In this document: positions 150-20,802 of the stretch, in pieces | Numbering within the stretch: the first letter of the stretch is position 1 | How the letters are laid out: every line of letters begins with the position of its first letter | NCBI GenBank assembly: GCA_040756875.1 | Contig: JBFLYH010000003.1 | Coordinates: forward strand, 295,073 to 359,072 | Origin: a candidate division FCPU426 bacterium | GTDB lineage: Bacteria > Oederibacteriota > JAAXVQ01 > JAUVAV01 | Direction of reading: 5' to 3' | Length of the DNA stretch: 64,000 nt | Notes under the pieces: generated by a model | What the model was told of the DNA's origin: nothing | The model's database searches: none | The model's input: the letters and a program-made list of their open reading frames with translations, nothing else | Position numbers and translations under genes: made by a program

Positions 150-1223
150 TCAACCGTTTCGTCCGTTCAGAATGTCCCGGGTGCGGCGGCCGGCTTTTTT
201 CGCCAGGCGGCCGAGGCGCCGCCACCAGCGCTGTTCGGGCAACAGGCGCCGCCGGAGTTGTTTCATAGTCAAGTCGTAGGGTTCCTCGGCGGGCAGCCAG
301 CGGGGATCAACAAAGGCCCGGCGCAGGAAGGCGGGGATTTTCTCGCCGCTGTCCAGGAAATCATAACTCCGCGGCATTTGGCGGTAAGCCGCCTCCCCGT
401 GGGCCTCCAGCAGTCGGGCATAAGTCGCTCCCAGCTCCCGGGCCAGCAGCTTGTTTCCGGCGACCCAGCGGTCAACGGCCCAGAAATACACCCCCTGGTC
501 GAACCCCGAGAAATGCACAAACCTGACCGGCCGGCGGTTGGCAAAAAGGCGCCCGCCGCGCCGCGTCAGTTTCCTTTCCTGCAAGGCCCAGGTGGCGACG
601 TTGTAGCCTGGGTCGCGCAGCAGGTGAACCTCGAAAAAAGCCGGCGCCAGATCCACCCATTTCTGGTCGGTGAACAGGCCGTTGGCCCGGTCGTCGTAGC
701 AGGCATGCCGGAGGCGTTCGCTCCACCATTCCAAAAAACGCGCCGCCTCGGCCGAGCGCCGCAACCCCAGGAACCCCAGGTTGAAAACGCCGTGGTTCAG
801 GCAGCTTTCCTCCATTTCCAGGTTGCCCGGCTCCAGCAGATGCGGCGTCAGCACAAGGGGATGCCGTTCCAGCAGCCTGCCCAGTTCCCGTAAATCCGAG
901 GTCACCATGACATCCGGGTCCAGATAAACGAATTGGTTTTCCCGTGGAAAGTGCGCCAGCAAATACTGCAGCAACCGGGCCTTGATCGCCGTGGCCCCTT
1001 CCACCCGGCTATGGCTGATGATATAACGTCCGAAATGCTTCCAGCCCAGGTCGCGCGCCAGGACCCACTCGTCCACAGCGGCGGTTTCAGGCATGCGCTC
1101 AGGTCGTGCTTTTTCGACCAGGCAGAAGACGGTTCGGGCCCGCGGGTGATGGCGCTTCAGCGTTTCCGCCAGTACGGCGGATTTGGCCAGATAATTCGCG
1201 CACACGCTGGTGCAGACGATCAT
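150..1223 (-). CDS. putative GT-A fold (GT8-like) nucleotide-sugar glycosyltransferase, 357 aa
   Basis: ORF 150..1538 trimmed to the internal ATG at 1221-1223 (MIVCTSVCANYLAKS...). That ATG overlaps the upstream stop as ATGA. 'VYLDPDVMV' is a DxD-type motif following an N-terminal Rossmann-like strand. Family assigned from sequence pattern only. Confidence 0.6.
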   Translation of the reverse strand: MIVCTSVCANYLAKSAVLAETLKRHHPRARTVFCLVEKARPERMPETAAVDEWVLARDLGWKHFGRYIISHSRVEGATAIKARLLQYLLAHFPRENQFVYLDPDVMVTSDLRELGRLLERHPLVLTPHLLEPGNLEMEESCLNHGVFNLGFLGLRRSAEAARFLEWWSERLRHACYDDRANGLFTDQKWVDLAPAFFEVHLLRDPGYNVATWALQERKLTRRGGRLFANRRPVRFVHFSGFDQGVYFWAVDRWVAGNKLLARELGATYARLLEAHGEAAYRQMPRSYDFLDSGEKIPAFLRRAFVDPRWLPAEEPYDLTMKQLRRRLLPEQRWWRRLGRLAKKAGRRTRDILNGRNG

Positions 1224-2134
1224 TTTCCCAACCCCCGTCTGAATCGCCGCCATCCCCGGACGGATCGGACCAGGCCGCCGAACAGGCCGTGATAAAGCGC
1301 ATGCAGCCACGGCACCTGAACCAGGCGTTTCTCGACTTTTAGGGCCGGAGATTTTCCAATCAGGCGGTGGAGATGGTTGTTTTGACGGGCCATGGCCACC
1401 CGGTTCTGAAAAAAGCGGAGCATGTTTTCCTTGCGTCCAAACAGGCGCGGATGGTTGAAAAAGATCCGCGTGAACATTTCCGCCTCTTTGCCGTCCCTTA
1501 GCATCCGAGTGGTCCGCGATTCTTTCCGCACACGGCAATAAAACATTATCCGATTGATGCGCACAACCTGCCGTTCATCCTGTTCCAGGAGGGAAAGCCA
1601 GAAATCGTAGTCCTCCATTCCATCCGTCATGTTGGCGTTGTAGCCGCCCGCCCGTTTCCAGGATTTTTTACGGTATAGGGCGGAGTTGAAAATAACATTA
1701 TCAAAGAGCATCTTTTCGAAGGAATAATCGGGAAGGATCCATTCTTCCTCGCGGGCGCCGAAAAGCCGGGCCCGGCAATAGACGATCCCGACCCCTTTGT
1801 CCCTCTCCATGACCTCTACGGCTTTTTTAACGTAGGCGGGAGCGATTTTGTCGTCCGCGTCCAGGGGCAGAATATATTCGCCCCGGGCCCGGGCAATGCC
1901 GGCGTTGCGCGCCCGGGCAGGCCCGCCGTGGACGATCCGAAAAACCGTCGTATGGGGACGCTGGTATTGCTTTAAAAGCCGGCAGGTGGCCCGGTCGGTT
2001 GAACCGTCGTCGACCACGATGATTTCCATCCGCGGGTACGTCTGGTTCAAAACCGACGCCACGGCCTCGTCCAGGTAAAGGCCGTCGTTATAGCAAGGAA
2101 TTATCACGCTGACCAAAGGCATGGTTTTATTCAC
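1220..2134 (-). CDS. family 2 glycosyltransferase, 304 aa
   Basis: 'VSVIIPCYNDGLYLDEAVASVLNQTY...EIIVVDDGSTD' and 'LPLDADD' are classic GT2 signatures. GTG start at 2134 with AGGGGA 6 nt upstream. Confidence 0.9.
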   Translation of the reverse strand: MNKTMPLVSVIIPCYNDGLYLDEAVASVLNQTYPRMEIIVVDDGSTDRATCRLLKQYQRPHTTVFRIVHGGPARARNAGIARARGEYILPLDADDKIAPAYVKKAVEVMERDKGVGIVYCRARLFGAREEEWILPDYSFEKMLFDNVIFNSALYRKKSWKRAGGYNANMTDGMEDYDFWLSLLEQDERQVVRINRIMFYCRVRKESRTTRMLRDGKEAEMFTRIFFNHPRLFGRKENMLRFFQNRVAMARQNNHLHRLIGKSPALKVEKRLVQVPWLHALYHGLFGGLVRSVRGWRRFRRGLGK

Positions 2135-2187
2135 TTTTCATCCCCTGCCCTGTGCATTTGATTCCGGCGTTGGGCCAGGAACCGGCT

Positions 2188-2928
2188 TCAATGCGCCCGG
2201 GTGTATGCTTCCACGATCGCATCGGTCGGTCCGATCATTTTAATGCCATGGTCTTCCAGCCAGACCACGCGATCGCACATTTCCCTCACCTGCTCCATGG
2301 AATGGGAGACGAAGATGATGGTGATTCCGCTTTTTTTATAGGCATAGGCTTTGGCTTGGCATTTTTTTTGGAATTCCATGTCTCCGACCGTGAATATTTC
2401 GTCCACCAGGAGGATCTCGGGATCCAGAAAACCGACCACGGAAAAACCGAGCCGGGCGATCATACCCGTGGAGTAGGTTCGCAGCGGCTGGTCTATAAAA
2501 AGTTCCAATTCAGAGAAAGCGATAATCTCGCCCATTTTCTCCACAACGGCCCGCCGGGTCAGGCCGAGGAGAATGCCGTTGAGCAGGATGTTTTCCCTGC
2601 CCGTGAGTTCGGGATGAAAGCCAGCCCCCAGTTCCAGCAGCGGTGAAACGCGTCCGTTGATCTTGATACTGCCAGTAGTCGGCCGGATGACCTGGGCAAT
2701 CAGCCCCAGCAGCGTGCTTTTGCCTGCGCCGTTCCGGCCGATGACGCCCAAGGTTTCACCGCGGCTGACGCTGAAACTGACGGATTTGAAAACTTCGTAG
2801 GGCCTCCGTCTCAGGTCCCGCCAATGGGCCGGAGCGTTAAACAGGAAGTGCTTGAACCCGCCCAGCAAGGGCCGGTAGTGGGGATACTGCTTGGAAACAT
2901 TATCCAAAACGATCACAGGTTCGCTCAT
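2188..2928 (-). CDS. polysaccharide ABC exporter ATP-binding protein (Wzt/TagH/KpsT type), 246 aa, nucleotide-binding domain only
   Basis: ORF 2188..3672 trimmed to the ATG at 2926-2928 (MSEPVIVLDNVSKQY), which overlaps the Wzm stop as ATGA. Walker A 'GRNGAGKST', signature-like 'YSTGM', Walker B 'ILLVDE', H-loop 'VSHS'. The protein ends right after the NBD. Confidence 0.9.
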   Translation of the reverse strand: MSEPVIVLDNVSKQYPHYRPLLGGFKHFLFNAPAHWRDLRRRPYEVFKSVSFSVSRGETLGVIGRNGAGKSTLLGLIAQVIRPTTGSIKINGRVSPLLELGAGFHPELTGRENILLNGILLGLTRRAVVEKMGEIIAFSELELFIDQPLRTYSTGMIARLGFSVVGFLDPEILLVDEIFTVGDMEFQKKCQAKAYAYKKSGITIIFVSHSMEQVREMCDRVVWLEDHGIKMIGPTDAIVEAYTRAH

Positions 2929-3692
2929 AGGACCTCGGCAAACCTCCAGTTTAACCGTCCATACACCCATCTGCCCAGCGCATAGGACAGCGCGGCATAG
3001 GCCAGGCTGATGCCCAGCCAGTCCAGCGCCAGATAGCCTTCCAGGAAAAGTTTCTGCCAGCCAATGATCATCCCGGCGAAGGGGTTGGCATAGATCAGCC
3101 AGCGGAATTTCACGGGAACCATTTCCAGAGGATAGATGATCGGCGTAACGTAAAAAGCCAGGGTCAGCAGAATCGTCACCAGCCGCTCCAAATCCCGGAA
3201 GAACAGGTTGATGCTGGAAACCAGCAGCGCCAGGCCATAGGTCAGAAAGAATTGTACTCCCAGGAGCACCGGGATGCCGTAGATCCAGGCCGGCGAGGCG
3301 GGCTTGTGGAAAATGGCGATGAACAGCCAGATAACCGGGAGCGAAAGGATGTAATGCAGCATGTCCTGCAATACGCCGCTCAACGGCAGCACGCTCCGCG
3401 GAAACGCCACTTTCTTGATGATGCTGCTGTTTGAAAGGAACACCGTGGAAGCCACGCTGACGGAATTGGAGGTCCATTGCCAGGGAAAAACTCCGATGAT
3501 CAAGAACAGGGCGAAAGCCTCCATGGGAATCCGCACAATCACCTTGAACGCGAAGTAGTAGACCGCTGCCAGGGCCAGGGGATGGGCAATGGACCAAAAG
3601 TAACCCAGAAGGTTGTTTTGATATCGGACCTTCAAATCCTTCCGGGTCATGACCAGCACGAGGTCCAGCCAATACCGCATTCTGGCGTTCAC
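2925..3692 (-). CDS. ABC-2 type polysaccharide exporter permease (Wzm/TagG type), 255 aa
   Basis: 'TRKDLKVRYQNNLLGYFWSIAHPL' is a typical ABC-2 N-terminal block, followed by about 6 hydrophobic segments. GTG 3692 overlaps the upstream TGA; ATG 3680 is an alternative start. Confidence 0.85.
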   Translation of the reverse strand: MNARMRYWLDLVLVMTRKDLKVRYQNNLLGYFWSIAHPLALAAVYYFAFKVIVRIPMEAFALFLIIGVFPWQWTSNSVSVASTVFLSNSSIIKKVAFPRSVLPLSGVLQDMLHYILSLPVIWLFIAIFHKPASPAWIYGIPVLLGVQFFLTYGLALLVSSINLFFRDLERLVTILLTLAFYVTPIIYPLEMVPVKFRWLIYANPFAGMIIGWQKLFLEGYLALDWLGISLAYAALSYALGRWVYGRLNWRFAEVL

Positions 3693-6589
3693 GGTTTACC
3701 CCCGTGGAATTCCCGAATTTCCATCAAGCCGATGCTCCCGTAGGCGCCTGCCGGGCTGATATCCAGGCGCATATCCATGTTGGCCTCTCTGACTTCAATA
3801 AAAAAATACAGGTCATTCCACCCGGGCAGCAGGGTTCTCATCTGACCCGCGCCTTCATTATATGCTTTTTGACCGGCGGCAAAATAATAAAACGCGGCCG
3901 TGGCTTCTCCTGCGCTTTTGATCCGCGCATGCAGGATGTACCGGCTGCCCACAGGCGCGGGCCTCCCCGGAATCGCAATGCGGGTCGCTGCTCCCGTCCG
4001 GTCTATCGTCATTTCCCCCGGGGCCCACTTTAGGAGGGTGTTGGAACTGCCGAAGGTGAAGAGTTCCCGCAGGCGGCTGAGCGGCAGGTTTTCATACCAA
4101 TCCCGCGGCAAACGGAGGGGTTCTTGGCCGGAACCATCGCCCAGAATTCCCAGTTCAACTGACCGCAGCCGATAGGTGCCGGGCTGACGGGCCGGATCAA
4201 AGCGCAACCCCCGGCGGACAACCTCTGCCGGCAGAACAAAACTCATCTGGTTCAGTCCTGCCTGCATTTTAACCGGCACGCTTCGCGCTTCGGTGAAGGC
4301 GGGGTCCTCGGCCCCAGGGTAAAACATACGGCATTCTGTTTGTTGGTTGGATTCCACCAGCAGGTTGACCACGACCGGGTCCCCGGTTCCCGCTTCGATA
4401 CCCGGAAGCAACAAAGTGGGATGATCGGTCTCGGCCTTCAACTCAAGTCCTTGCGGCGTGAGCTGGGATTTCATTCCTTCGCCGATTTGCACCCGGGCCA
4501 GGTTCTCCCCCGACCAGCTCGCCAGCGGGTAATAGGGATAAATAAAACCCGCCCTGGGGGCTTTCTGCGTCCTCAAGCCCCATCCCGCTTTTTTTCGCAT
4601 ATATAGCCGCCGGATCAGATAAACGCCGTTCTGGCAAGCCGGGTCCAGCCTGACGCCATAATTGATCGAGGCGGCTGGCAGCGTGAAATTCAGCCGGTTC
4701 GTTCCCGAATGAATCTGGCTGATGAGCGACTGCTTTTCCGAATATTTTTCAGTCAGCGACCGCCGGTAATAAACCTGGCAAAGCGTTTCCTGCGGCGCTT
4801 CCATTTCCAACGACATAATGACATCACCGGTCTCCCCGAAATCCTTGCCCGGCAGAAAGAGCATGGGATCGTTTCCGTTAACCCAGAGTCGCAAGCCCTG
4901 AGGTTCCCGCCACATTTTTAAATCCCGGTTTCCGCTGATTGGCTGGCTTTGTTTGGGATAGTCGGATTCCCCGCCGCCCAGACTCGTGTCGTGAATCCAG
5001 AGCTGAACCTGGGAAAGCGGTTCCATCTCTCCGACCTGGTCGCATGTTTCCGCCTCGGGCCCGGGTTCAACTTTGAACACCCGCAGCGAATGGATCAGCA
5101 CCTTTCCTGACGTTGACAGGGGGTCGAAGCGCAAGCCGGCGGCCAACTGCGCGGCCGACACCGGAAAATTAAGGTAATTCTGCCCGGCCTGAACTTCTTC
5201 CCAGATTTTATCGTCGTTCGAGAAAGACTGCAGCGACGATTCGCGGAAGAAAAGCTCGCACGTGCTGCGGCAGCTGGCAACCATGTCAACCCGGAGCAGG
5301 TAATCCTTCTCCGCCGGCAGGCTCAGTTTGGGTAAATACAGCTTCATATCCATCCCGCGGGTGGAGAACTGCCAGCCTTCGGCGGACCGATCGATTTTAA
5401 CGCTTTTCTTCTCGTCTTGCACCACCAGGGAATCCAGGGCGATGTCCTGCAGCAGCCTCGCGTTCAGCAGTCTGAGGAGTTTTCCCCATACAAAAGTGGC
5501 CTGGCGAGCGGCCACCTCCATGACGATGTGGTCATATTGCTTGCGTCCCTCTTTGTCCAGGGCATTGTCGAGGATGAAGTCGTCGTAATGCATGCACGTG
5601 AGGTCTTCGAAATATTGTCTTAACATGGGGCGCGCTTCGGCCAGCAAGGAGTCGTGCAGCAGCAAAGTGCGTCCGCCAATCAAGCGGCGGGTTGCGCTTC
5701 GCGAAAGATAATGGGCGGGCTTTTTCCAATCTTTGTCCGGGGCGACTTCCTCCCTGATCAATTCCACTCCCCGGCGCCGAACCCCGTATTTTTGTTCGGG
5801 CTCGCGCAATGGACCCAATCCGGCCAGGGGCCCCAAGTCCGAGGATTTCTCGGTTTTTTCCCCCAGGACCACCTCGGCCGGGTCCCAAAGCCCGGGTTGA
5901 AACCGATCCACGACCGCCTGGACTAAAACCAGCATGCCGCGGTTGGTGTGATGCGTGTCGAGCTTGAAAAAAACCGGTTCTGACAGCGAGCGTCTGGCCG
6001 TCAGATAGGGTTCCCGCATGTCTTGGATTTCCGGCCCTTGAAAATCCCCGTAAAAATTCCGCAATATCTCCCGCCGGCGTCCGGCCCAGGCCGCCAAGCG
6101 GCTGAAAACCGGCCCTAATTTTTCCGGATAAATCTCGTCCTTGTCCGGCCCGATAAAAAACGTCCAGTCAGGTTCCCCGGCTTCGCGGTGGCGCAGAAAA
6201 TATTCCAGCATTTTCAAGGTGTGCCGGATTTGCGTCGGGGATTCCCAGGGGCGGTAATAACCGCTTCTCACGAACAGCCAATGCTCCATGCCCCGGTCAG
6301 TTTGGCTGAACCGCCGTTCCCCCAAAGTATAAGCCAGCCGATTCTTTTTGATAATGACATGTCCGCGGCCGGGAAAGCGGTCGCGCAGGGCCAGCGAAAA
6401 CTGCTGGTAAGTGTTGACGTTGAAAAAGTCCTGCCAGGTCCCGATCTGCGGCCAGCCCTCCATGGACCGTTTTTCCATCTCCCGCACAAATAGGTCCTCC
6501 ACATTGACGGGGGTGAATAACAAGCCCAGGGGTGAAAAAAGCACCGCCAGACAGAAGCAAGCAGCCAGGGTGTTGGTTATCTTTTTCAT
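3689..6589 (-). CDS. 966-aa exported AlgJ/AlgX/'DHHW'-like O-acyltransferase partner with four C-terminal repeat modules (copy 1)
   Basis: N-terminal signal anchor (MKKITNTLAACFCLAVLFSPLG). 'KLDTHHT' (aa 210-216) and 'LHDSLL' (aa 311-316) match the Asp-x-His...Ser arrangement of AlgJ/AlgX-type enzymes. The gene starts 2 nt after the MBOAT stop. Residues ~385-966 form 4 tandem modules, each ending in an (L/V)R(F/L)DP...G.Y motif. Confidence 0.7.
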   Translation of the reverse strand: MKKITNTLAACFCLAVLFSPLGLLFTPVNVEDLFVREMEKRSMEGWPQIGTWQDFFNVNTYQQFSLALRDRFPGRGHVIIKKNRLAYTLGERRFSQTDRGMEHWLFVRSGYYRPWESPTQIRHTLKMLEYFLRHREAGEPDWTFFIGPDKDEIYPEKLGPVFSRLAAWAGRRREILRNFYGDFQGPEIQDMREPYLTARRSLSEPVFFKLDTHHTNRGMLVLVQAVVDRFQPGLWDPAEVVLGEKTEKSSDLGPLAGLGPLREPEQKYGVRRRGVELIREEVAPDKDWKKPAHYLSRSATRRLIGGRTLLLHDSLLAEARPMLRQYFEDLTCMHYDDFILDNALDKEGRKQYDHIVMEVAARQATFVWGKLLRLLNARLLQDIALDSLVVQDEKKSVKIDRSAEGWQFSTRGMDMKLYLPKLSLPAEKDYLLRVDMVASCRSTCELFFRESSLQSFSNDDKIWEEVQAGQNYLNFPVSAAQLAAGLRFDPLSTSGKVLIHSLRVFKVEPGPEAETCDQVGEMEPLSQVQLWIHDTSLGGGESDYPKQSQPISGNRDLKMWREPQGLRLWVNGNDPMLFLPGKDFGETGDVIMSLEMEAPQETLCQVYYRRSLTEKYSEKQSLISQIHSGTNRLNFTLPAASINYGVRLDPACQNGVYLIRRLYMRKKAGWGLRTQKAPRAGFIYPYYPLASWSGENLARVQIGEGMKSQLTPQGLELKAETDHPTLLLPGIEAGTGDPVVVNLLVESNQQTECRMFYPGAEDPAFTEARSVPVKMQAGLNQMSFVLPAEVVRRGLRFDPARQPGTYRLRSVELGILGDGSGQEPLRLPRDWYENLPLSRLRELFTFGSSNTLLKWAPGEMTIDRTGAATRIAIPGRPAPVGSRYILHARIKSAGEATAAFYYFAAGQKAYNEGAGQMRTLLPGWNDLYFFIEVREANMDMRLDISPAGAYGSIGLMEIREFHGGKP

Positions 6590-6591
6590 GG

Positions 6592-8028
6592 TTAAAATTT
6601 AAAGTAGATGAATGGAATATAATTGCTGCTAATCACCATCATGACCGCCGCTGCCAGGCCTATCGTGGCCAGGGAAAGCCTGAGCCACCCGGCCAGACGC
6701 GAGTCCGACTGGTCAAGAAACCGACCCATGCTTTCCTTGAACGGCAAAAGCACCAATAATCCTCCTAAAACCAAGGTGGCCAGGCTCTGAACGCTGATTT
6801 CCGCCAACCAGGGAAACGGCTGAACGGTCTCCGCCATTCCGAACAGGGCTTGGTAGTAATACCAAATATGGTCAGCTTCCTTGGCCCGGAACATCACCAT
6901 GCCCATTAAAACAAAGAACATCGCGACGAGGCGTTGCAGTCCCGGATGCTTGAAATCCTCGGCGAACCGCTTGCCGGTCATCCGCTCCCAGCACAGAAAA
7001 ACGCCGTGGTATGCCCCGAAAATGATATACGTCCAATTGGCCCCGTGCCAAAAACCCACTAAGGTAAAAACCGTAAACAAGTTGAAGAATTGCCGCCACG
7101 TGGCGACCCGCGACCCTCCCAGGGGGATGTACACATAGTCCCGAAACCAGGTCGAAAGCGAAATGTGCCAGCGCCGCCAAAAATCCGTGAAACTGACCGC
7201 CATATACGGCCGGTTGAAGTTTTCCCGGAAATGAAACCCGAACACCCTCCCCAACCCGATCGCCATGTCCGAATATCCCGAAAAATCGAAATACACCTGC
7301 AGCGTAAACGCCACCAATCCCAGCCACGCCAGCCCGGCCCCCAGCCCCTGGTCCAGACCGAACGCCTGGTCCGCGATCATCCCGATCGGGTCCGCGATCA
7401 CCGCTTTCTTGAACAGCCCCAGCATGAAGCGGACCAGCCCCGAGGCGACGTTGTCCCAGGTGTGTTGCCGCGACTTGACCTGCGGCTCGATCTCGTCATA
7501 GCGCACGATCGGCCCCGCGATCAGCTGCGGAAACATCGACAAGTACATGCCCATGTCCACGGGATTCTTGATGACCCCGACATGCCCCCGGTAGACGTCG
7601 ATGACGTAGCTGAGCGCCTGAAACGTGAAAAAGGAGATGCCGATGGGCAGCAGGATGCCCGGATTCGGAAACGGCCGGACCTGGGGCAGGATCCAAAAGA
7701 TCACCTGGTCCAGCTGTTCGACCAGGAAGTTGGCGTATTTGTAATAGCCCAGCAGGGCCAGGTTCATGACGATGGCCAGGGTCAGCCAGGCTTTTTTCAC
7801 GGCAGGCTGCTGCTTTCGATCCGCCCGGTTGATCAGCAGGCCAAACATCCAGTTCCCCGCGATCGAAGCCATGAAAACCAAAACGACTTCGCCCGCGCCC
7901 CACATATAGAACAACAGGCTCATGACCAGCAGGACGGTGTTTTTCCACCAGACCGGTTTAAATCCAAAATACAAAATAAAAACCAGCGGCAGAAAACAAA
8001 AAAGAAAAACAATCGAAGAAAAAACCAC
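6592..8028 (-). CDS. MBOAT family O-acyltransferase (AlgI/DltB/PatA-like), 478 aa (copy 1)
   Basis: Polytopic protein with 'FTFQALSYVIDVYRG', 'FWRRWHISLSTWFRDYVYIPLGG' and 'GFWHGANW' (conserved MBOAT His region). GTG start at 8028 with AGGAG 9 nt upstream. Confidence 0.9.
   Translation of the reverse strand: MVFSSIVFLFCFLPLVFILYFGFKPVWWKNTVLLVMSLLFYMWGAGEVVLVFMASIAGNWMFGLLINRADRKQQPAVKKAWLTLAIVMNLALLGYYKYANFLVEQLDQVIFWILPQVRPFPNPGILLPIGISFFTFQALSYVIDVYRGHVGVIKNPVDMGMYLSMFPQLIAGPIVRYDEIEPQVKSRQHTWDNVASGLVRFMLGLFKKAVIADPIGMIADQAFGLDQGLGAGLAWLGLVAFTLQVYFDFSGYSDMAIGLGRVFGFHFRENFNRPYMAVSFTDFWRRWHISLSTWFRDYVYIPLGGSRVATWRQFFNLFTVFTLVGFWHGANWTYIIFGAYHGVFLCWERMTGKRFAEDFKHPGLQRLVAMFFVLMGMVMFRAKEADHIWYYYQALFGMAETVQPFPWLAEISVQSLATLVLGGLLVLLPFKESMGRFLDQSDSRLAGWLRLSLATIGLAAAVMMVISSNYIPFIYFKF
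7106..7949. repeat. 844-bp tract apparently identical to 11611..12454 (offset 4505), internal to MBOAT copy 1
   Basis: Ends determined base by base: mismatches at 7105/11610 and 7950/12455. Spot-checked in the middle. All six-frame ORF peptides crossing the tract are identical between copies. Confidence 0.85.
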
Positions 8029-8166
8029 CGCTTTATGCTCCTATGCTTTCAGTGAAGTAATCCCCCGGACTATGTCCGGGGCTCCCCCCTCCGCAAAAAT
8101 CCCGCAATCCTCTCCCTGGTCAGCGGTCCCGATGGGAGCTGAAGCCCGGGGATTCATGTGGAGGGA

Positions 8167-11094
8167 TTAATAACCGGCTATTGACGTTGGTTCCAAACTG
8201 CCCGGCGATTCAAGCAACTCCCGCAGTTCCAAACGGACGGTGTTTCCGGCTGCCGGCTCCAGATCCAGGAGCAGGGCCTGTTGCAGTTGGGTCCCTTCCA
8301 GGTAAAAGAAATATTCAGCAACTCCCTGCCGCGTTGTCTGGCAGAGAAAATGCTCTTCATTATAGCCGTTCTGCCGGTCTTTTGAATAATAAAGCCGGCA
8401 GGCGCCGGTTGCCGACCCCGTCCTGGTCAGGCGGAAAAGGTATTTTCCCGACAGCCCCGGCGGCACCGGCAGCGCCCATTGCGCCCGCCCGTTCCCGGTC
8501 CGCCGCAGCAGTCCGGGCGCGTCCCAGTGCGAAAGGGTTTCCGAACATTGGTAGGTGAAAACCTCCTCCAGAGCGGCCGCGGACAAATTCTCGCAATACT
8601 CCCGGCTCCAGTCCAGGGACAATGCCTGTTCTGCCCCTCCCACCAGTCCGAGTTTCAGCGAGCGAATCAGGTATTTTCCCGCATGGCAAGCCGGGTCCAG
8701 GCGCAAGGGCCGGTCCAAGGCGCCGCGCGCCAGGTTGAAATACATTTCATTCCGGCCCGGCTTGAGGTCCCGGCTGCTGCTGTTTTCCTCGCTGTATCCC
8801 TCGCCGGGTTGGGTCGTAAAAAATAGCTGGGCGCTGGTTTTCCGATCGGATTCCAGCACCAGCCGCAAGACGCCGGCCGTAGTCCCCTGGCCCTGTACCC
8901 GGGGAAGATACAACTGCGGATCTGTGCCGGTGACGGCCAACTCCAGCCCCTCTTCCGTGCAGGTCAACCGCGCTTCCGCGTTGCCTTGAATCCTCGCCAG
9001 CTCTTTTCCGCTCAATTCGTACCAGCTGGTCACGGGATAGATCAACCGCAGCCGATCCGGCGCTCCGGCCTCCCGGCTTTTTCCGCTCCCTCTCAGGTTG
9101 CTGACAGCCAGTTCTTTGATCAAATAGAGCCCGCTCTGGCCTCCCGGATCCAGGCGCAAGCCGCCGCCCAGACTTTCGGGGCTCACCCGAAACCGCAGGC
9201 GATTCATTCCGGGCCGGACATGCCGCCGGAGGCTGCGTTCCTCGGCGAATGCCTGGTCTGAAGCCAGGCGGAAATAAACCTGCGCCCAGGTATCTTCGCT
9301 GGACTCCAGTGCCAGCTCAAGCACCGGCCGGGCGTCCGCCGCCGCGGCCAGGGAAGGCAGCTGCAGGCTGGGGTCCGGGTTGCTGGCGCCGATCCACAAG
9401 CCCCGGGCCAGACTTTGCAATTGAGCGTCTTTGTTCGCCGTCAGCACCGCGTCCATCCCCCCCACGATCCGGCGCTCCGGCCCGGTTTCAGCCAGTATCC
9501 AGAGCCGGCTGGCGTCGGAGGCAGCCGGTACGTCCGCCATTATCGAAGCCGCACCCAATGAAGGCGGCGGATCGATGGCAAACACCTGCGCCGACTGAAG
9601 CAGGATGGTCCCAGGCTGGCACAGCGGGTCAAACCGCATGGGATAGGACAACTGCTTGGCGTTTAGAGGGAAAACCAGGCTGTTCCTGCCGCGCCGGATG
9701 TCTTTAAAAAAGCTCCGGTCCTCGCCGTAGCCCTGGCCGGGGGCCTCCCTATAAAACAACTGCCCCGACGTCGCCACTGAGGAATTGAATTCAATTTGCA
9801 GGATATAGTCCTGGTTCATGGGCAAAGCCGTCCGGGGCAAATAAACCATGGGATCATAGCTCCGGAAATCGCACTTCACTCCCTGCGCGGTTTTTTCAGG
9901 CTGCAAGGTTCGGTTGCTATCCTGATATTTTAAAGTGACCGGATCCAGCTCGCATACGGCCCTAGCGTTGAGCCTGGTGAAAAGCTCGGCCATCGAAGCG
10001 ACCACTTGGCGGTCCCCCACTTCGATAACCATGCGGTCGAAATCCGAAAATTGGCCGGCCAAAAACACGTCCTCGAGCAGCGTATTGTAATGAACAAAGA
10101 CCGCATCCTGAAAATACTCCGCCAAATACCTGCGGTAATTCCCGAGCATGGAATCATAAATGACCAGGCTCTTTCCCGGAATGAACTGTTGCGTATCGCT
10201 GTGATAAACATAATGCACCGGCGCTCGCCACGTCTTTTCGGATTGCAGCCATTCCTGCTTAAGGCAGCGCACATCCCGGCGCCTGAGTTGCAGGGCTGTA
10301 TCCTTTTCGGCCACCGGGCCGATTCCCGACAGCAAGGGCAGATCTCCATAGACGTCGATCCTCCCCCGGGCGGCCACTTCCGAATCCCGCCAGAGGCCGG
10401 GGTGGAGCGCTTCGACCATGGTTTTGAGCATCATCATCCTGCCCTGGTACGTATGATGGGTGTCGAACGTCAAAAAGACCGGTCCCCTGTTCCGGGAGCG
10501 CGCCATTTGATAGGCGCGGGTCAACCCCCAGACGCCTTGCCGTTCGTGATCCGTAAAAAAGTTGTGGATCTGCGTCCGGCGGCGGTGGTAGCGGTCAGCC
10601 AAAGCCCGATCACGGGCCCTGAGTTTTTCGGGATAAATCATATCTTTGTCAGGCGGAATAAAAATGCGCAAACCGGGCTTGAGCCCCGGTTGCCGGCCGA
10701 GAAAATGTTCCATCATCTTCAGCACCCGCCGGGTCTTGGCTTCTTCCCACGGCCGGTAATAGGCGCTGCGGATGAAAAACCATCTGGTCGGGCCCACCAC
10801 AACATCACCGAACAGGCGTTCGTTCAGAAGGTAATAGGCCAGGCGGTTTTTAATAATAATCAGCAGGCCGCGGAAAGGCAGCCGGTCCTGCAGGGCTTGG
10901 TTGACCTCGCTGTAGGTCCGCGTCTTCAACAAATCCCAAACTGTGACGATTCGCGGCCAGCGGGCAAGCTGGCGTTTCTCCACCTTCTGGATGAACCACT
11001 CCTCGTTCGGGTTCCTCCAGGGCTGCCAGCACACCGGTGCAAAAAGCATGGCCAGGCAAAACCCGCCGGCGATATTCAGGAGTGTTTTTTTCAT
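8167..11094 (-). CDS. 975-aa exported AlgJ/AlgX/'DHHW'-like O-acyltransferase partner with four C-terminal repeat modules (copy 2)
   Basis: Paralog of 3689..6589 with the same layout: signal anchor, 'FDTHHT', 'IYDSML'. It has four modules ending 'PMRFDPLCQPG', 'GLRLDPGGQSG', 'PLRLDPACHAG' and 'LLLDLEPAAG'. It starts 2 nt after the stop of MBOAT copy 2. Confidence 0.7.
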   Translation of the reverse strand: MKKTLLNIAGGFCLAMLFAPVCWQPWRNPNEEWFIQKVEKRQLARWPRIVTVWDLLKTRTYSEVNQALQDRLPFRGLLIIIKNRLAYYLLNERLFGDVVVGPTRWFFIRSAYYRPWEEAKTRRVLKMMEHFLGRQPGLKPGLRIFIPPDKDMIYPEKLRARDRALADRYHRRRTQIHNFFTDHERQGVWGLTRAYQMARSRNRGPVFLTFDTHHTYQGRMMMLKTMVEALHPGLWRDSEVAARGRIDVYGDLPLLSGIGPVAEKDTALQLRRRDVRCLKQEWLQSEKTWRAPVHYVYHSDTQQFIPGKSLVIYDSMLGNYRRYLAEYFQDAVFVHYNTLLEDVFLAGQFSDFDRMVIEVGDRQVVASMAELFTRLNARAVCELDPVTLKYQDSNRTLQPEKTAQGVKCDFRSYDPMVYLPRTALPMNQDYILQIEFNSSVATSGQLFYREAPGQGYGEDRSFFKDIRRGRNSLVFPLNAKQLSYPMRFDPLCQPGTILLQSAQVFAIDPPPSLGAASIMADVPAASDASRLWILAETGPERRIVGGMDAVLTANKDAQLQSLARGLWIGASNPDPSLQLPSLAAAADARPVLELALESSEDTWAQVYFRLASDQAFAEERSLRRHVRPGMNRLRFRVSPESLGGGLRLDPGGQSGLYLIKELAVSNLRGSGKSREAGAPDRLRLIYPVTSWYELSGKELARIQGNAEARLTCTEEGLELAVTGTDPQLYLPRVQGQGTTAGVLRLVLESDRKTSAQLFFTTQPGEGYSEENSSSRDLKPGRNEMYFNLARGALDRPLRLDPACHAGKYLIRSLKLGLVGGAEQALSLDWSREYCENLSAAALEEVFTYQCSETLSHWDAPGLLRRTGNGRAQWALPVPPGLSGKYLFRLTRTGSATGACRLYYSKDRQNGYNEEHFLCQTTRQGVAEYFFYLEGTQLQQALLLDLEPAAGNTVRLELRELLESPGSLEPTSIAGY

Positions 11095-11096
11095 GT

Positions 11097-12533
11097 TTAA
11101 AATTTGAAATAAATAAAGGGTTGAAAATCGCTGCTCGCCATCATCAAAACCGCCGCCACCAGACCCAGGGCGGCCACCGATAACCTGAGCCAGGCGGCTG
11201 TCCGGGAGTCGGCATGGTCAAAATAGCTCCCCGAACTCTCGGCCCGCGGCCAAAACACCAGCAGCAATCCGAATCCCAAGGTCACCAGGCTCTGGTTGCT
11301 GATGTTTGCCAGCCAGTAAAAGTGCAAGGGTTCCTGCGGGATGGTGACCAACCCCCGGAAATAGTCCGCTGCGGCGGGAAGGTTCCGGGCCCTGAAAAAC
11401 ACCATGCCCAGCATAATCAGGAAAAAAGCGATCATTCGCTGCAAACCCGGATGCCGGAAATCCTCGGGCAGGCGTTTCCCGGAAATCCGCTCCCAGCACA
11501 TGAAAAAACCGTGATACAGCCCCAGCGCGATGAAGGTCCAGTTGGCGCCGTGCCAAAATCCCATCAGCACGAATACCACCAGCAAATTGAAGTATATTTT
11601 CCAGGAAGAAACCCGCGACCCTCCCAGGGGGATGTACACATAGTCCCGAAACCAGGTCGAAAGCGAAATGTGCCAGCGCCGCCAAAAATCCGTGAAACTG
11701 ACCGCCATATACGGCCGGTTGAAGTTTTCCCGGAAATGAAACCCGAACACCCTCCCCAACCCGATCGCCATGTCCGAATATCCCGAAAAATCGAAATACA
11801 CCTGCAGCGTAAACGCCACCAATCCCAGCCACGCCAGCCCGGCCCCCAGCCCCTGGTCCAGACCGAACGCCTGGTCCGCGATCATCCCGATCGGGTCCGC
11901 GATCACCGCTTTCTTGAACAGCCCCAGCATGAAGCGGACCAGCCCCGAGGCGACGTTGTCCCAGGTGTGTTGCCGCGACTTGACCTGCGGCTCGATCTCG
12001 TCATAGCGCACGATCGGCCCCGCGATCAGCTGCGGAAACATCGACAAGTACATGCCCATGTCCACGGGATTCTTGATGACCCCGACATGCCCCCGGTAGA
12101 CGTCGATGACGTAGCTGAGCGCCTGAAACGTGAAAAAGGAGATGCCGATGGGCAGCAGGATGCCCGGATTCGGAAACGGCCGGACCTGGGGCAGGATCCA
12201 AAAGATCACCTGGTCCAGCTGTTCGACCAGGAAGTTGGCGTATTTGTAATAGCCCAGCAGGGCCAGGTTCATGACGATGGCCAGGGTCAGCCAGGCTTTT
12301 TTCACGGCAGGCTGCTGCTTTCGATCCGCCCGGTTGATCAGCAGGCCAAACATCCAGTTCCCCGCGATCGAAGCCATGAAAACCAAAACGACTTCGCCCG
12401 CGCCCCACATATAGAACAACAGGCTCATGACCAGCAGGACGGTGTTTTTCCACCGGACTGGCCTGAACCCGAAATACAGGAGGAGTATCAGCGGCAAAAA
12501 ATAGAACAGAAAAGTGACGGACGAAAACACCAT
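11097..12533 (-). CDS. MBOAT family O-acyltransferase, 478 aa (copy 2)
   Basis: Same motifs as copy 1. ORF 11097..12560 trimmed to the ATG at 12531-12533 (MVFSSVTFLF), which has GAAGGAG upstream and gives the same length as copy 1. GTG 12560 is an alternative start. Confidence 0.9.
   Translation of the reverse strand: MVFSSVTFLFYFLPLILLLYFGFRPVRWKNTVLLVMSLLFYMWGAGEVVLVFMASIAGNWMFGLLINRADRKQQPAVKKAWLTLAIVMNLALLGYYKYANFLVEQLDQVIFWILPQVRPFPNPGILLPIGISFFTFQALSYVIDVYRGHVGVIKNPVDMGMYLSMFPQLIAGPIVRYDEIEPQVKSRQHTWDNVASGLVRFMLGLFKKAVIADPIGMIADQAFGLDQGLGAGLAWLGLVAFTLQVYFDFSGYSDMAIGLGRVFGFHFRENFNRPYMAVSFTDFWRRWHISLSTWFRDYVYIPLGGSRVSSWKIYFNLLVVFVLMGFWHGANWTFIALGLYHGFFMCWERISGKRLPEDFRHPGLQRMIAFFLIMLGMVFFRARNLPAAADYFRGLVTIPQEPLHFYWLANISNQSLVTLGFGLLLVFWPRAESSGSYFDHADSRTAAWLRLSVAALGLVAAVLMMASSDFQPFIYFKF
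11611..12454. repeat. second copy of the 844-bp identical tract (partner 7106..7949)
   Basis: See 7106..7949. Confidence 0.85.
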
Positions 12534-12567
12534 GAAACGGTCTGCTCCTTCTATTCGCACCCGAACT

Positions 12568-15500
12568 TCAAATCATCAAACCCAGATCACCCAGAAGGTT
12601 CCCGGCGTACTGTTCGAACTGGTACTCGCGCGCAGCCTTGTTCATGGCTGCCTGCACCAATTCCCGGCCTGATCCGGGATCACGCAACAAACGGCAGACT
12701 TCGCCGGACATGGCCTGGATGTCTAGATAAGGGACGACAACGCCGCAGCCTGCAGCCAGCATTTCCGCCGCGCCGCCGCTGCCGGTAAAAGCCGCCACCG
12801 GCACGCCGACCTCCATGGCCGAGAGCACGACATTGGGAAAAGGATCCTCGCGGGAGGTGAGGGCGAAGACATCCGCGGCCGCCAGGTACAGGGCGTCGTC
12901 CTTTTGAAAACCGATAAAATGCACTTTCCGGTCCAGGCCGGTCCGGGCCAGGTCATGCTTCAGCCAGGCCTGGAATTCGGGCTGCAGGCTGCCTGCCCAG
13001 ATGAAATGCACGTTCACATCCGCCAGTTGCCGCAAAACGCTTTGCGCCAGGGCCACGAACAGGTCCGGCCCCTTGCGCAAATCCGCATAAGCGCAGTTCA
13101 AAACGATTTTGCTGTTCGGACCCAGCCCGTGTTTTTGGGCCACTTTCTGGCGGGCCATTTCCCGCTTTTCCCGGTAGCGGTTGGGTTGCAGAATCCCCTG
13201 GGGGCGTATCCGGCATTTGGCCGGCGCCAGGGGATGCCACTCCAAAAAGGCTTTTCGCACGTACTCCGCGGGAAACGCCAACACGTCCGCGGCTTCGGCC
13301 AGCTGCTTCGCCAGCGTTTGATAACCGTAGGTTTGAATCAAAGTGGGCAGCTCGTGCACCAGGCCCAGTACGTTGAATCCCCGCGGTTTCAACCAGGCCG
13401 CCAGATCGCCCGTAACCACCGTGTTGCAGATGACGGAACGGATCCGCTCCGACTGCAACCGTCTGCCGATGGCTTCCAATGCCGCCGGCTCGGAACCCCG
13501 TTGCCGGATTTCGTCCGTTAAGCGGATCACTTTGCCGTACTTGGCGAATTCCGAAAGAAGTTCACCATCCTGTTTGCTGACAATGACCAGCGTGTATTTC
13601 ATTTTTTCCGCCAAGGTCCTGGCCAGGGTCAAGGCGATGAATTGGGCGCCATGACAGTGTCCGTCATGGATCACCAGGCCCAGCCGCTTGGGGCCGGGCT
13701 CTTCCGGGGCCAGCGGCCTGTTTTCAGGCGGCGCCGACTCCACGGCCACAGTAGAAACGGCCGCCGGGCCGGCCTGCTTCTGACCCGCCGGTTTTTCCAA
13801 AACCCGCCTGGTGGCTTCCAGCCAGGCATGGCCGTATTCCAGGTCCGGCTCCAAATGCGCGCCTTCGCCCCATTCATTCCAGGCATTGACGAACAGCATG
13901 GCTTCCGGGTCGTTCCCCACCCCCGGCTTATTGATCAGCCCTTCCAGCCACAACTGGTATCGCTCGGGCGTGGCCTTGTAAAAAACGAGGCCGCGTTCGC
14001 GCCTGCGGGGGGTGTTGTCCCAGCACGTCATGACCCCGCGGTGGTACGTAAAAGCCGGCTCGGGCCGCCGCAACGAATATTCCATTATTTCCCGGTAATC
14101 AGCGATGTGACCGGCAAAACCCGGATCAAGCCCGGGAACGGTGGCGGCGATGTTTTGAGTGGCAAAATGGTTGGGCGGGAATTCCACCAGGGCGTCAAAT
14201 CCCCGGTCGCGGGGATCGCCGAAGCCGACGGTTTCCACTGCGCACAGGTGCAGGCCCGGCAACCCGGCTTGCACGCATGCTTCGCGCCAGGCGCGGGCGG
14301 TCCGCTTCGGGTCGTGCATCCGGTCCGTCCGGTAAACCAGCAGCACGGGCCGGCCTTGGTAACGGATATACCGGGGATCCCGGAAAAGCGGCAGCAGTTC
14401 GTGAATGAAATCCAGATCAGACTCCAGCGTATGTTCCTGCGAAATGAGGACATCCTGGTCCTGGCCGTCCCAATTTCGCGTCCAGTTCTCGTTGGCCCAG
14501 CACACGCAGAAGGGAAAATCCGGTTCACCCGCAGCCACCACTTCCTGCAGCGGCTGCTCCAGCAGGCGCCGGCCGTTGAACCAGTAGTAATAATAGCAGA
14601 AGCCGTGAATGCCGTACGCCCTGGCCAGGGCGGCCTGTTGTTCGCGGACTTCCGGCACGCGCAAATCGTAAAAGCCCAGATCCGCGGGAAGATGCGGCTG
14701 GTAGTGGCCGGAAAAAAGCGGCCGGGCCTGGGCCACGTATTCCCATTCCGTGAACCCGGGCCCCCACCAAGCGTCGTTCTCCGGAATGGGATGGTATTGC
14801 GGAAGATAGAACGCGATCAGGCGCGGCCGAAGCGGGTCTGCTGCCAAGGGCTGCGGCCGCTCATGGACCGGCCTCCGCAGCGAATCGCGCTTGCGGACGG
14901 GCACTTCGCCGGTCGTCGGGGAGGGGCCGGCATCCGGATAGGTCTGCGGACTCTCGGCTCCGGCCACGGCCTTCGGCAACCGGCCTTCCTGGCGGCCGTA
15001 AAGCCAAAAGTGGCGGAAAGGCGCAATCCCGGCCTGGATGACGTCCGGATACTGTTCCATGTAGAAAAGCGAATCAAACTCCGGCCCCGGATCCCTGCCT
15101 TCCGCTTCGCCGTATCTCAGGAAATGGACCAGGGGATTCATGCCCGAAAGCGCGGCGTCCGGATTCCTCCGCAAATAATCATCCCCGTCGAAATAGGGGT
15201 TGGGCCGCTTGTGCTCCCCGGCGCCTTGGCGCAGGTAGTGGCCGATGGGATCGTTGAGGCCGGCTGCTTGAGCCGGGTATTGGCTGAGATAAAACGCTTC
15301 ATCGAACAACCCGCTTTCCCGGATCATCGCCGCCACGGCCGGCCTGGACCGCCAGGTCCGCCAGAAGGCGGCTTGGCCCAGCCACGAGTTCAGTTTGCGT
15401 GCCAGTGTTTGCCTGACCGCCCTGGGAATGTGTTGCAGGCGAGTGGCGGCAAACCGCGCGGCCTGCAGTTGTTGCATGCCCCGGCGCATCAGCTCCCGCA

Positions 15501-17694: not shown

Positions 17695-17850
17695 ACTATA
17701 TCATACCAGCCATTAAAAAACCGCCTCTTACCCATCGTTTAATGCGTTCGGCCTCTCGATCCCGGATGGAGCGTCCGGGGTACCACCTTCAACCCTGGTT
17801 ACCTGCTCTTGGCGGCATCCCCGGAGCAACGATCCCACATTCACCTCCGA

Positions 17851-17870
17851 GCGACTGAAAGAAGTCCCTT
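17851..17870. repeat. exact 20-mer GCGACTGAAAGAAGTCCCTT, also at 54782..54801
   Basis: Read directly in both intergenic regions. The flanks are also similar: 'YAGG' immediately follows the 20-mer, and 'CGGGG.GCC' lies further downstream. Confidence 0.8.
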
Positions 17871-17921
17871 CAGGGGCAAGCTCGGGGTGCCCTGGGAGGG
17901 GGTGGCGCGCGGGATTTCGCT

Positions 17922-17951
17922 TTGACATATTTCTCTGCGTTTTGGCATAAT
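17922..17951 (+). promoter_or_regulatory. sigma70-like promoter for the GT-C gene: TTGACA-18 nt-CATAAT
   Basis: TTGACA at 17922-17927 and CATAAT at 17946-17951. Followed by an imperfect 14-bp hairpin (17957-17990) in the ~60-nt leader. Confidence 0.45.
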
Positions 17952-18016
17952 TCATCCGGACAGGTGCAACTCAATGATGAGTTGACCGTCCTTTTATCTC
18001 ATTATAAAGGCCTTCC

Positions 18017-20726: not shown

Positions 20727-20802
20727 TGGCTGCCGACCCAGGGCTCGAACCTGGAACCCCCTGATCCAGAGTCAGGTGCTCTGCCAGTTGAGCTAGTCGG
20801 CA
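20727..20802 (-). tRNA. tRNA-Gln (anticodon CUG), 76 nt with encoded CCA
   Basis: Hand-folded sequence: UGCCGAC-UA-GCUC-AACUGGCA-GAGC-A-CCUGA-CUCUGGA-UCAGG-GGGUU-CCAGG-UUCGAGC-CCUGG-GUCGGCA-G-CCA. The U1-A72 pair and G73 discriminator are typical of bacterial tRNA-Gln. Confidence 0.9.

Follow-up and report, generated by a model that had tools for sequence, protein, structure and literature searches.

Two tandem MBOAT and AlgJ/PatB1-like gene pairs in a putative ABC-transporter-dependent glycan operon of a candidate division FCPU426 bacterium

Why should one operon for the synthesis and export of a glycan carry the same two-gene acylation module twice? The question is raised by a stretch of 64,000 nucleotides from contig JBFLYH010000003.1 of a candidate division FCPU426 bacterium (hereafter the window, meaning this whole stretch), in which nine closely packed minus-strand genes fill positions 150-17694 in the open reading frame (ORF) map. 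Between a giant methyltransferase/glycosyltransferase fusion and the permease and ATPase of a Wzm/Wzt-type ATP-binding cassette (ABC) transporter lie two tandem pairs, each made of a gene for a membrane-bound O-acyltransferase (MBOAT) together with a gene for a partner protein with an SGNH-like catalytic domain. The two-component logic of such pairs is established for AlgI/AlgJ/AlgX, WssH/WssI, PatA/PatB, PatA1/PatB1, PatA2/PatB2 and DltB/DltX/DltD (PMC12148441, PMC9487903, PMC7759979). We consider it likely that the operon specifies a glycan pathway that depends on an ABC transporter and includes two O-acyltransferase relays, paralogous and of the MBOAT-SGNH-like type, with different acceptor specificities. 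An earlier reading of the DNA letters alone (the sequence-only reading) had laid out the gene order and coordinates on the minus strand, with a gap of 2 nt inside each pair; the ORF map confirmed the order and coordinates, and the gaps were found at 6590-6591 and 11095-11096.

The two MBOAT genes and their shared tract

The two pairs, in the order of transcription, and the tract shared by their MBOAT genes are the following.

11097-12533, minus strand: MBOAT2, 478 aa, Pfam MBOAT 106.9 bits
8167-11094, minus strand: partner2, 975 aa, Pfam ALGX 25.5 bits
8029-8166, minus strand: spacer between partner2 and MBOAT1, 138 nt, structured
6592-8028, minus strand: MBOAT1, GTG start, 478 aa, Pfam MBOAT 116.5 bits
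3689-6589, minus strand: partner1, 966 aa, Pfam ALGX 30.3 bits
11611-12454, minus strand: identical tract, MBOAT2 copy, 844 nt
7106-7949, minus strand: identical tract, MBOAT1 copy, 844 nt, codons ~27-308

Both MBOATs scored above the Pfam MBOAT cut-off of 27 bits, and DltB was their sole sequence relative of solved structure (1e-28). In the alignment, FWRRWHISLS matched FWNRWHMSLS of DltB and GFWHGANW matched GFWHGITW of DltB in both copies, and the family-invariant histidine corresponded to H328, located within FWHGANW in both. The alignment to DltB stopped at residue 367 of 478, ~110 residues short of the C-terminus, and both MBOATs terminated in FIYFKF (Y475), fitting the FxYxxF acyl-shuttle motif; an F-x-Y-F-x-F ending was present in all the partner-linked MBOATs extracted (10/10). 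In non-Dlt bacterial MBOATs the FxYxxF motif sits on two additional helices, and in PatA the tyrosine of the motif is auto-acetylated from acetyl-CoA and then acts as donor to the SGNH partner (PMC12148441). The ~110 extra C-terminal residues ending in FIYFKF therefore fit the two extra helices and the FxYxxF motif of PatA.

The two MBOATs were 82% identical as proteins, with an identity that changed along the chain from 69% (residues 1-26) to 99.6% (residues 27-308) and to 55% (residues 309-478). At the DNA level, positions 7106-7949 and 11611-12454 were exactly identical over 844 nt, and the DNA flanking them was ~70% identical. The MBOAT genes are a mosaic, and the partner together with the last ~170 residues of each MBOAT stays pair-specific.

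As the source is probably a metagenome assembly, we asked whether the tandem duplication or the identical tract could be an artefact, with two strains joined or a repeat threaded twice. Exact repeats of 844 nt are hard for short reads, and independent short-read contigs do end there: contig L010 of an independent Logan assembly (100% identical) starts 29 nt inside the 3′ edge of the tract, in the MBOAT1 copy. This break, however, can be explained by a de Bruijn graph branching out of a true repeat, and a repeat that is really present twice in one genome breaks contigs at just such edges. Moreover, both junctions around the tract (partner2-spacer-MBOAT1 and giant gene-MBOAT2) are unique sequence, so they must exist in the reads, the difference of ~30% of positions in the tract flanks shows that the two copies are not alleles collapsed into one, and a relative at 66% identity has the same partner2-MBOAT1 junction. 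Given the unique junctions, the position of the L010 break and the same arrangement in a second organism, we judged the tandem arrangement to be real; neither it nor the identical tract is an assembly artefact, an explanation to which we attach next to no weight.

In the relative, the orthologues of partner1 and partner2 are P0002 (60% identical) and P0006 (66% identical), respectively. The contigs carrying P0006 (L023/L024) comprise an MBOAT C-terminus, the partner2 orthologue, a 24-nt spacer and the first 25 codons of a further MBOAT. The C-terminus was 72% identical to that of MBOAT2 and 56% to that of MBOAT1, and the 25 start codons were 92% identical to those of MBOAT1. The presence of the same partner2-MBOAT1 junction in the relative indicates that the double pair is older than the split of the two lineages, and the duplication of the module, as it had first been described, is thereby extended to a second organism. 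The P0006 contig ends at codon 25, close to codon 27 where the tract begins in the window, and the P0002 and P0006 contigs have a common starting point, MBOAT codon 341, with no difference over their first 30 nt; the tract of the relative is thus deduced from contig ends and is not read directly. Since each lineage apparently has its own identical tract, this indicates concerted evolution and points to recurrent gene conversion between the MBOAT paralogues.

In a neighbour-joining tree the partners with four C-terminal repeats (described below) grouped together, with partner2 as a deep branch. The dN/dS and dS values, calculated by NG86 for each protein or segment against its orthologue in the relative, were as follows.

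Partner1: dN/dS 0.28, dS 0.99
Partner2: dN/dS 0.24, dS 0.99
MBOAT1 C-terminus: dN/dS 0.10, dS 0.9
MBOAT2 C-terminus: dN/dS 0.19, dS 0.85

The low dN/dS in the partners and in the MBOAT C-termini shows that both pairs are maintained by selection.

Catalytic domain and C-terminal repeats of the partners

Each partner begins with MKK followed by a single hydrophobic segment (aa 7-25 in partner1 and aa 4-22 in partner2), and is therefore predicted to have a type II anchor, most of the protein lying outside the cytoplasm. The LAAC of partner1 was discarded as a possible lipoprotein signal, its Cys being at residue 11, too near the N-terminus; partner2 has no lipobox. The anchor is followed in both partners by an AlgJ/PatB1-like domain (~aa 30-388). 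The signal anchor, the DTHH motif and the (H/Y)DS(L/M) motif noticed in the sequence-only reading were all recovered in both proteins, with DTHH at 211-214 in each, HDSL at 312-315 in partner1 and YDSM at 313-316 in partner2. The candidate catalytic residues are D211, H213 and S314 (S315 in partner2); the domain of partner1 also has K150.

In both partners the order is permuted, with the D211-x-H213 block before the nucleophile Ser. Proteins of the AlgX and DHHW families are circularly permuted in this way, with the DxH block ahead of the Ser (PMC9487903), and the DxH and KDS-type blocks supply the catalytic Asp, His and Ser (PMC9487903, SGNH review). Among 127 representatives of the family, K150 and H213 were invariant (127/127 each) and D211 was present in 108/127, while in the ungapped columns of the same set S314 was found in 119/119 and D313 in 117/119.

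At the sequence level, partner1 matched Pfam ALGX (PF16822) with 30.3 bits, over the cut-off of 26.5 bits, and the same family was matched by 9/9 tested relatives with the N-terminal domain. A profile built from six sequences matched AlgJ (4o8v) at 5e-6, and a family profile of 40 sequences matched AlgJ (4o8v) at 7e-25, PatB1 of B. cereus at 1.2e-20 and AlgX at 1.5e-7. In these alignments the DtH(W/H) block of the family falls on TDTHW of AlgJ and TDHHW of PatB1, and the Ser of hDS on the Ser of KDS in PatB1. Using an AF2 model of the N-terminal domain, the only significant Foldseek matches were PatB1 (5v8d and 5v8e; E 8e-5 to 2e-4, probability 1.0) and the DHHW protein 4nzk (6e-4); the next ones were alpha/beta hydrolases and were not significant (E > 0.3), and AlgJ and AlgX were not listed among the matches of this model. 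Neither partner gave a match to Pfam DHHW (PF14286) at E <= 0.01, and both have FDTHHT and H/YDS and show no clear equivalent of DxRY. The partners were therefore placed in a broadly defined AlgX family, PatB1 being the solved structure closest to them in fold. With regard to what had been proposed from the letters, the similarity to AlgJ and AlgX held in the profile matches, which also included PatB1, and gave way to PatB1 in the fold comparison; the DHHW-type label was abandoned, on account of the lack of a Pfam DHHW match and the differing motifs; and the identity between the partners, put at 35-45%, was lower when computed over the full length (33%) and came to 38% in the N-terminal domain.

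The partners had also been described as about twice the usual size, which is correct, as most family members are single-domain proteins of 370-410 aa. The extra ~580 residues of each partner consist of four repeats of ~103 aa, delimited with a hidden Markov model (HMM).

Partner1 repeats: aa 404-507, 564-666, 713-815 and 858-960, at window 5069-5380, 4592-4900, 4145-4453 and 3710-4018, minus strand
Partner2 repeats: aa 404-503, 564-663, 715-815 and 869-960, minus strand

The repeat consensus is G..DP...LP ... QLFY....Y.E..S.....G.N.L.F.L.....LR.DPG...G.Y, and the AF2 model of the repeat region (pLDDT 77) comprises four all-beta domains. The Foldseek matches of this model were reelin repeats, Cry protoxin domains, GH101, neuropilin b1b2, Vip3 and a Bacteroides surface glycan-binding protein, that is, multi-domain proteins with jelly-roll, galactose-binding-like or carbohydrate-binding module (CBM)-like domains (E 1e-13 to 1e-8); AlgX was absent from the top 50 fold matches of the repeat region. 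Judging from these modelled folds, the repeats may bind glycan, and the ~103-aa repeat is a candidate new glycan-binding module in the form of an uncurated domain. The number of repeats follows a length series, with one repeat in proteins of ~520-560 aa, two in ~650-680 aa, three in ~820-836 aa and four in 950-990 aa, the last in only five protein clusters.

The repeat is found also on canonical ALGX proteins. In addition, P0063, a metagenome protein of 1612 aa from ENA, has three copies of the repeat (~429-525, 981-1069 and 1503-1600) alternating with sulfotransferase domains. Acyltransferases are thus not the only carriers of the module, which may work in the cytoplasm too. Its occurrence fits a module that accompanies glycan-modifying enzymes.

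Glycan export genes, proposed relay and competing explanations

The remaining genes of the operon are listed here in the order of transcription; the giant fusion lies upstream of the two pairs and the other four lie downstream.

12568-17694, minus strand: giant methyltransferase/glycosyltransferase fusion, first gene of the operon, 1708 aa
2925-3692, minus strand: Wzm, ABC-2 permease, 255 aa, Pfam ABC2_membrane 44.6 bits
2188-2928, minus strand: Wzt, ABC ATPase, 246 aa, Pfam ABC_tran 65.8 bits
1220-2134, minus strand: GT2 glycosyltransferase, 304 aa, at the 3′ side of the cassette
150-1223, minus strand: conserved ORF (ORF357), 357 aa, weak GT8 match (E = 0.014), otherwise no family

The assignment of Wzm and Wzt, already made in the first reading, was upheld by the matches to Pfam ABC2_membrane (cut-off 26.9 bits) and ABC_tran. 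The best NCBIfam models were those of Wzm/RfbD and KpsM for the permease and of Wzt/RfbE and TagH for the ATPase, all of them under the equivalog cut-offs; flanked by glycosyltransferases, the two genes fit an ABC-2 permease with a Wzt/TagH-type ATPase within a glycan cluster. The genes partner1/wzm, wzm/wzt (as ATGA) and GT2/ORF357 overlap by 4 nt. Wzt consists of the nucleotide-binding domain only (246 aa), without a C-terminal carbohydrate-binding domain, and the gene call on L010 is likewise 246 aa; such a domain occurs only in the terminal-cap-dependent subclass of Wzt. A 494-aa open frame for Wzt running through wzm (window 2925-3672) was rejected as a gene, since its first ~250 codons are an alternate-frame read-through rich in P, G, R and H; the real start of wzt is the ATG at 2928, overlapping the wzm stop. 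The 494-aa frame is open also in L005, and its upstream ~250 codons look conserved because wzm is conserved.

In the giant protein, Pfam identified two S-adenosylmethionine (SAM) methyltransferase domains (~80-210 and ~360-495), a WbsX glycosyltransferase domain (959-1295) and a GT4 glycosyltransferase domain (1349-1683), with a coiled coil at ~611-716. This layout is, we assume, like that of the single-protein polymerase/terminator "ruler" enzymes of ABC-transporter-dependent O-antigen pathways, and the giant fusion is presumed to be the polymerase/terminator of the glycan.

An exhaustive profile search retrieved 6,366 representatives of the family at E <= 1e-3, of which 1,952 reached E <= 1e-10 and 180 reached E <= 1e-30; the neighbourhood survey covered a small sample of ~20 loci. 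The linkage of partner homologues to MBOAT genes held throughout, an MBOAT adjoining the partner in every locus examined (~20/20). In a metagenome-assembled genome (L005/L016) the order is divergent 546-aa membrane ORF, giant, MBOAT, partner, Wzm, Wzt, GT2 and ORF357, with a single pair and a three-repeat partner; L013, whose contig begins inside the giant gene, has giant, MBOAT, partner, Wzm, Wzt, GT2 and ORF357, again with a single pair and with a two-repeat partner. The giant-MBOAT-partner-Wzm-Wzt cassette is thus common to three lineages, two of which have a single pair. The P0003 and P0004 loci have the giant-MBOAT-partner order. Orthologues of the giant protein (44-48% identity) lie directly upstream of the MBOAT in L004, L005, L013 and the P0004 contig; Wzm is 62% identical in L005 and L013, GT2 is 53-75% identical in L001/L002, L005 and L013, and orthologues of ORF357 (48-67% identical) stand behind GT2 in L001, L005 and L013. 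Loci of Pseudomonas (L006, L008 and L009) were retrieved as distant relatives.

Some of these loci showed further features. In L001, two radical-SAM genes, one with a B12-binding domain, lie at 5027-8552 behind GT2 and a 356-aa ORF. A Phycisphaerales contig (L014/L015, 8538-16747) carries two MBOAT-ALGX pairs (487+392 aa and 499+523 aa) 3.6 kb apart, with a mechanosensitive-channel gene on the other strand between them; neither pair belongs to a wzm/wzt operon. The C-termini of the two MBOATs are 72% identical, and this is an independent case of paired duplication.

From these elements the following relay can be proposed. In the cytoplasm, the giant fusion and GT2 would assemble the glycan on a lipid carrier; methylation or chain termination would fall to the methyltransferase domains and coiled coil of the giant protein, and Wzm/Wzt would export the product. 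Each MBOAT would take an acyl group at the cytoplasmic face, most likely acetyl from acetyl-CoA, and its His328 would load it onto Tyr475 of the FIYFKF shuttle peptide at the periplasmic face. The cognate partner, anchored in the inner membrane, would pick up the acyl group on Ser314 (triad D211/H213/S314, in the permuted order of AlgJ, AlgX and PatB1) and move it to a hydroxyl of the polysaccharide, which the four beta-sandwich repeats would hold as the single CBM of AlgX does. The two pairs would have been kept for different acceptor specificities, that is, for another position or another residue.

The steps up to the transfer of the acyl group onto the polymer follow by analogy from knowledge of the characterised families, and we infer which acyl donor and which acceptor are used, that the transfer is timed to the periplasmic stage, that the repeats bind glycan and that the two pairs differ in specificity. 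As the MBOAT core is kept identical by conversion, the acyl donor is probably shared, and as conversion stops before the C-terminal third and the partners are only 33% identical, the acceptor specificities would differ. Taken together, the sequence comparisons suggest that one exported glycan probably receives two different O-acyl decorations.

Several observations weigh against this interpretation. The ALGX score of partner2 (25.5 bits) is 1 bit short of the cut-off. The N-domain model, built from a shallow alignment, has a mean pLDDT of 65, falling to <50 over residues 147-212, which include the PDKD and DTHH motifs, and its Foldseek TM-scores were only 0.31-0.44, a result that could be explained by the poor quality of the model. 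The oxyanion-hole residue Arg359 of PatB1 has no clear equivalent in the alignment. The "CBM-like" character of the repeats is drawn from modelled multi-domain Foldseek matches with TM-scores <0.2, which would reflect differing domain arrangements, and the repeat had no sequence match in Pfam, NCBIfam or PDB. Lastly, in L001/L002, the closest relative, GT2 comes straight after the partner1 orthologue and wzm/wzt are missing from this place, which means that the coupling with an exporter is not obligatory; the wiring to an ABC transporter put forward in the sequence-only reading recurs in L005/L016 and L013 and fails at this position in the closest relative.

Other explanations were weighed against two relays acting on one glycan. 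The pairs could serve different polymers, one the exported glycan and the other peptidoglycan, another exopolysaccharide or the lipopolysaccharide (LPS) core: the partners, at 33-38% identity, are as distant as partners from different lineages, related MBOAT-SGNH pairs have peptidoglycan or secondary cell wall polysaccharide as their target (PMC12148441, PMC9487903), and the Phycisphaerales genome has its two MBOAT-ALGX pairs outside a wzm/wzt operon. We regard this as unlikely, because both pairs lie in one packed operon between polymerase and exporter with 2-nt and 4-nt junctions, both partners share the four-repeat architecture and belong to the four-repeat clade, and the double pair was inherited as a unit in a second lineage. 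A redundant duplication, retained for dosage or robustness with the same acyl group placed at the same position, would agree with the identical MBOAT cores and with the single pair found in two of the three wzm/wzt-cassette lineages (L005/L016 and L013). Redundancy, however, would be expected to end in loss of a whole copy or in its homogenisation, whereas conversion ends inside the MBOAT and the partners have only 33% of their residues in common, purifying selection acts on each partner (dN/dS ~0.25) and both copies were retained across a dS of ~1; this makes simple redundancy quite improbable.

The possibility that the ~970-aa proteins are periplasmic esterases or hydrolases, which deacylate or cut the glycan, was also considered. 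Esterase activity is seen in vitro for SGNH-like enzymes of this kind (PMC9487903), and alpha/beta hydrolases followed next in the Foldseek search, although not significantly (E > 0.3). On the other hand, an MBOAT with the FxYxxF shuttle motif adjoins the partner in every locus, and the characterised MBOAT-linked proteins AlgJ/AlgX, PatB1, PatB, WssI and DltD are all transferases (PMC12148441, PMC10302187). A degradative role thus appears very unlikely.

Within the reading preferred here, that of two acyltransferase relays with different acceptors, a more general view can be advanced tentatively, and we hold it to be possible rather than probable. In this modular view of the MBOAT, the core (residues ~27-308 here, and to ~340-350 in the relative) would be a partner-independent acyl-donor module held identical by conversion between the paralogues, and the C-terminal third, which has the two extra helices and the FxYxxF shuttle, would co-evolve with one partner and pick the recipient; with their anchored multi-CBM partners, such pairs might form a distinct class, hitherto undescribed, that acylates lipid-linked, ABC-exported, O-antigen-like glycans, with a repeat number (0-4) tuned to the polymer. 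With identical MBOAT cores and divergent C-terminal modules and partners, the operon is a natural chimera from which the expected seat of partner specificity can be read, a point that the work on PatA/PatB and Dlt had not settled.

Related systems and genomic surroundings

Among the described systems, PatA1-PatB1 and PatA2-PatB2 of Bacillus cereus/anthracis, which O-acetylate the secondary cell wall polysaccharide, are alike in combining an MBOAT with a separate extracytoplasmic, circularly permuted SGNH-like transferase. PatB1 was the best structural match, and its N-terminal ENR...P motif, DxH block and xDS block all align with those of the partners; in addition, Bacillus has two paralogous PatA/PatB pairs per genome (PMC7759979, PMC9487903). 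In contrast to the partners of the window, which have DTHHT and H/YDS and four beta-sandwich repeats, PatB1 belongs to Pfam DHHW with TDHHW, KDS and DxRY and has no CBM (PMC9487903). Furthermore, the host of the window is not a Bacillus and its genes lie inside a wzm/wzt operon. No report of gene conversion between Bacillus PatA genes was found in the literature.

The alginate system of Pseudomonas (AlgI-AlgJ-AlgF-AlgX) shares the Pfam ALGX family and an AlgI-type MBOAT; AlgJ is the best sequence-profile match and has an N-terminal membrane anchor, and AlgX has a catalytic domain followed by a carbohydrate-binding-type module. Unlike the window, alginate acetylation uses one MBOAT with two SGNH-like proteins and AlgF and is synthase-dependent, whereas in the window one partner per MBOAT joins anchor, catalytic domain and four repeats, no AlgF was seen and the system would depend on an ABC transporter. 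Gram-negative PatA-PatB has an MBOAT with two extra C-terminal helices ending in FxYxxF, the Tyr of which passes the acyl group to the Ser of the partner (PMC12148441), but PatB is a canonical-order SGNH protein of another family, with peptidoglycan as acceptor and no CBM-like repeats.

WssH-WssI (cellulose) and DltB-DltX-DltD (D-alanylation of teichoic acid) likewise combine an MBOAT with an extracytoplasmic SGNH-type transferase. WssI differs in belonging to a synthase-dependent system. Teichoic acid is exported by the Wzm/Wzt-like TagGH, and TagH models were among the best NCBIfam matches of Wzt; Dlt differs, however, in using a carrier protein and the DltX microprotein and in transferring D-alanine. 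Neither dltA, dltC nor dltX was detected in the operon among the ORFs screened, those of 100 aa or more. The AT3-SGNH proteins (OafA, OafB and Lag-1 type) resemble the proposed relay in the post-export O-acetylation of LPS-type glycans by a membrane acyltransferase and an SGNH domain through an acyl-Tyr intermediate (PMC12148441, PMC9558356), with the difference that their membrane component is AT3, unrelated to MBOAT. A review of AT3 proteins names AlgI, PatA, DltB and WssH as the MBOAT systems of bacteria, and deals with LPS/O-antigen acylation in connection with AT3 (PMC9558356).

In the reviews consulted and the literature searches made, we found no description of an MBOAT-SGNH pair within a Wzm/Wzt pathway, of an anchored partner carrying as many as four CBM-like repeats in tandem, or of concerted evolution confined to the MBOAT core. 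The suggestion that no system of this architecture had been described has to be narrowed: duplicated pairs (PatA1/B1 and PatA2/B2 of Bacillus) and a transferase with a CBM (AlgX) are known. The characterised targets of MBOAT-SGNH systems have so far been alginate, cellulose, peptidoglycan, secondary cell wall polysaccharide and teichoic acids, and with a conserved cassette in which an MBOAT pair stands between polymerase and Wzm/Wzt, glycans that depend on an ABC transporter would be added to the reach of the MBOAT route. These findings leave the known chemistry as it is, and the bacterium that carries the operon is uncultured.

With regard to expression of the operon, the 138-nt spacer between partner2 and MBOAT1 folded at -59.2 kcal/mol with z = -2.75 (RNA fold); it occurs once in the window and includes the hairpin CCCCGGAC-ATA-GUCCGGGG. 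No terminator was called between the two pairs, and the structured spacer is not followed by a T-tract. Only the last ~17 nt, with a GGAG ribosome-binding site, are kept in the 24-nt spacer of the relative, and the ~114 nt by which the spacer of the window is longer could have been inserted as an element, or could act between the pairs as a signal for mRNA processing or stability. A promoter-like site lies at 18001-18030 (minus strand) upstream of the giant gene, and a promoter-like pair is found within the intergenic region 17700-18030.

The surroundings of the operon are chromosomal, with gltX, an M23 peptidase gene, parB, parA, dnaE, guaA, groEL and ftsH. A divergent ORF of 546 aa (18017-19657, plus strand) encodes several hydrophobic segments and has no Pfam or NCBIfam match; an ORF occupies the same position in L005 (33% identity), and a 622-aa gene on the opposite strand is found there in the P0004 contig. 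Its product may belong to the pathway as a membrane component so far overlooked. A 798-aa protein encoded ~10 kb away from the operon (27855-30251, plus strand) has an O-antigen-ligase-type Wzy_C domain and C-terminal TPR repeats, and is a candidate ligase for the exported glycan. A single tRNA gene (20730-20802, minus strand), the sole Rfam match in the 64-kb window, lies between a GT2 gene (19723-20658) and gltX.

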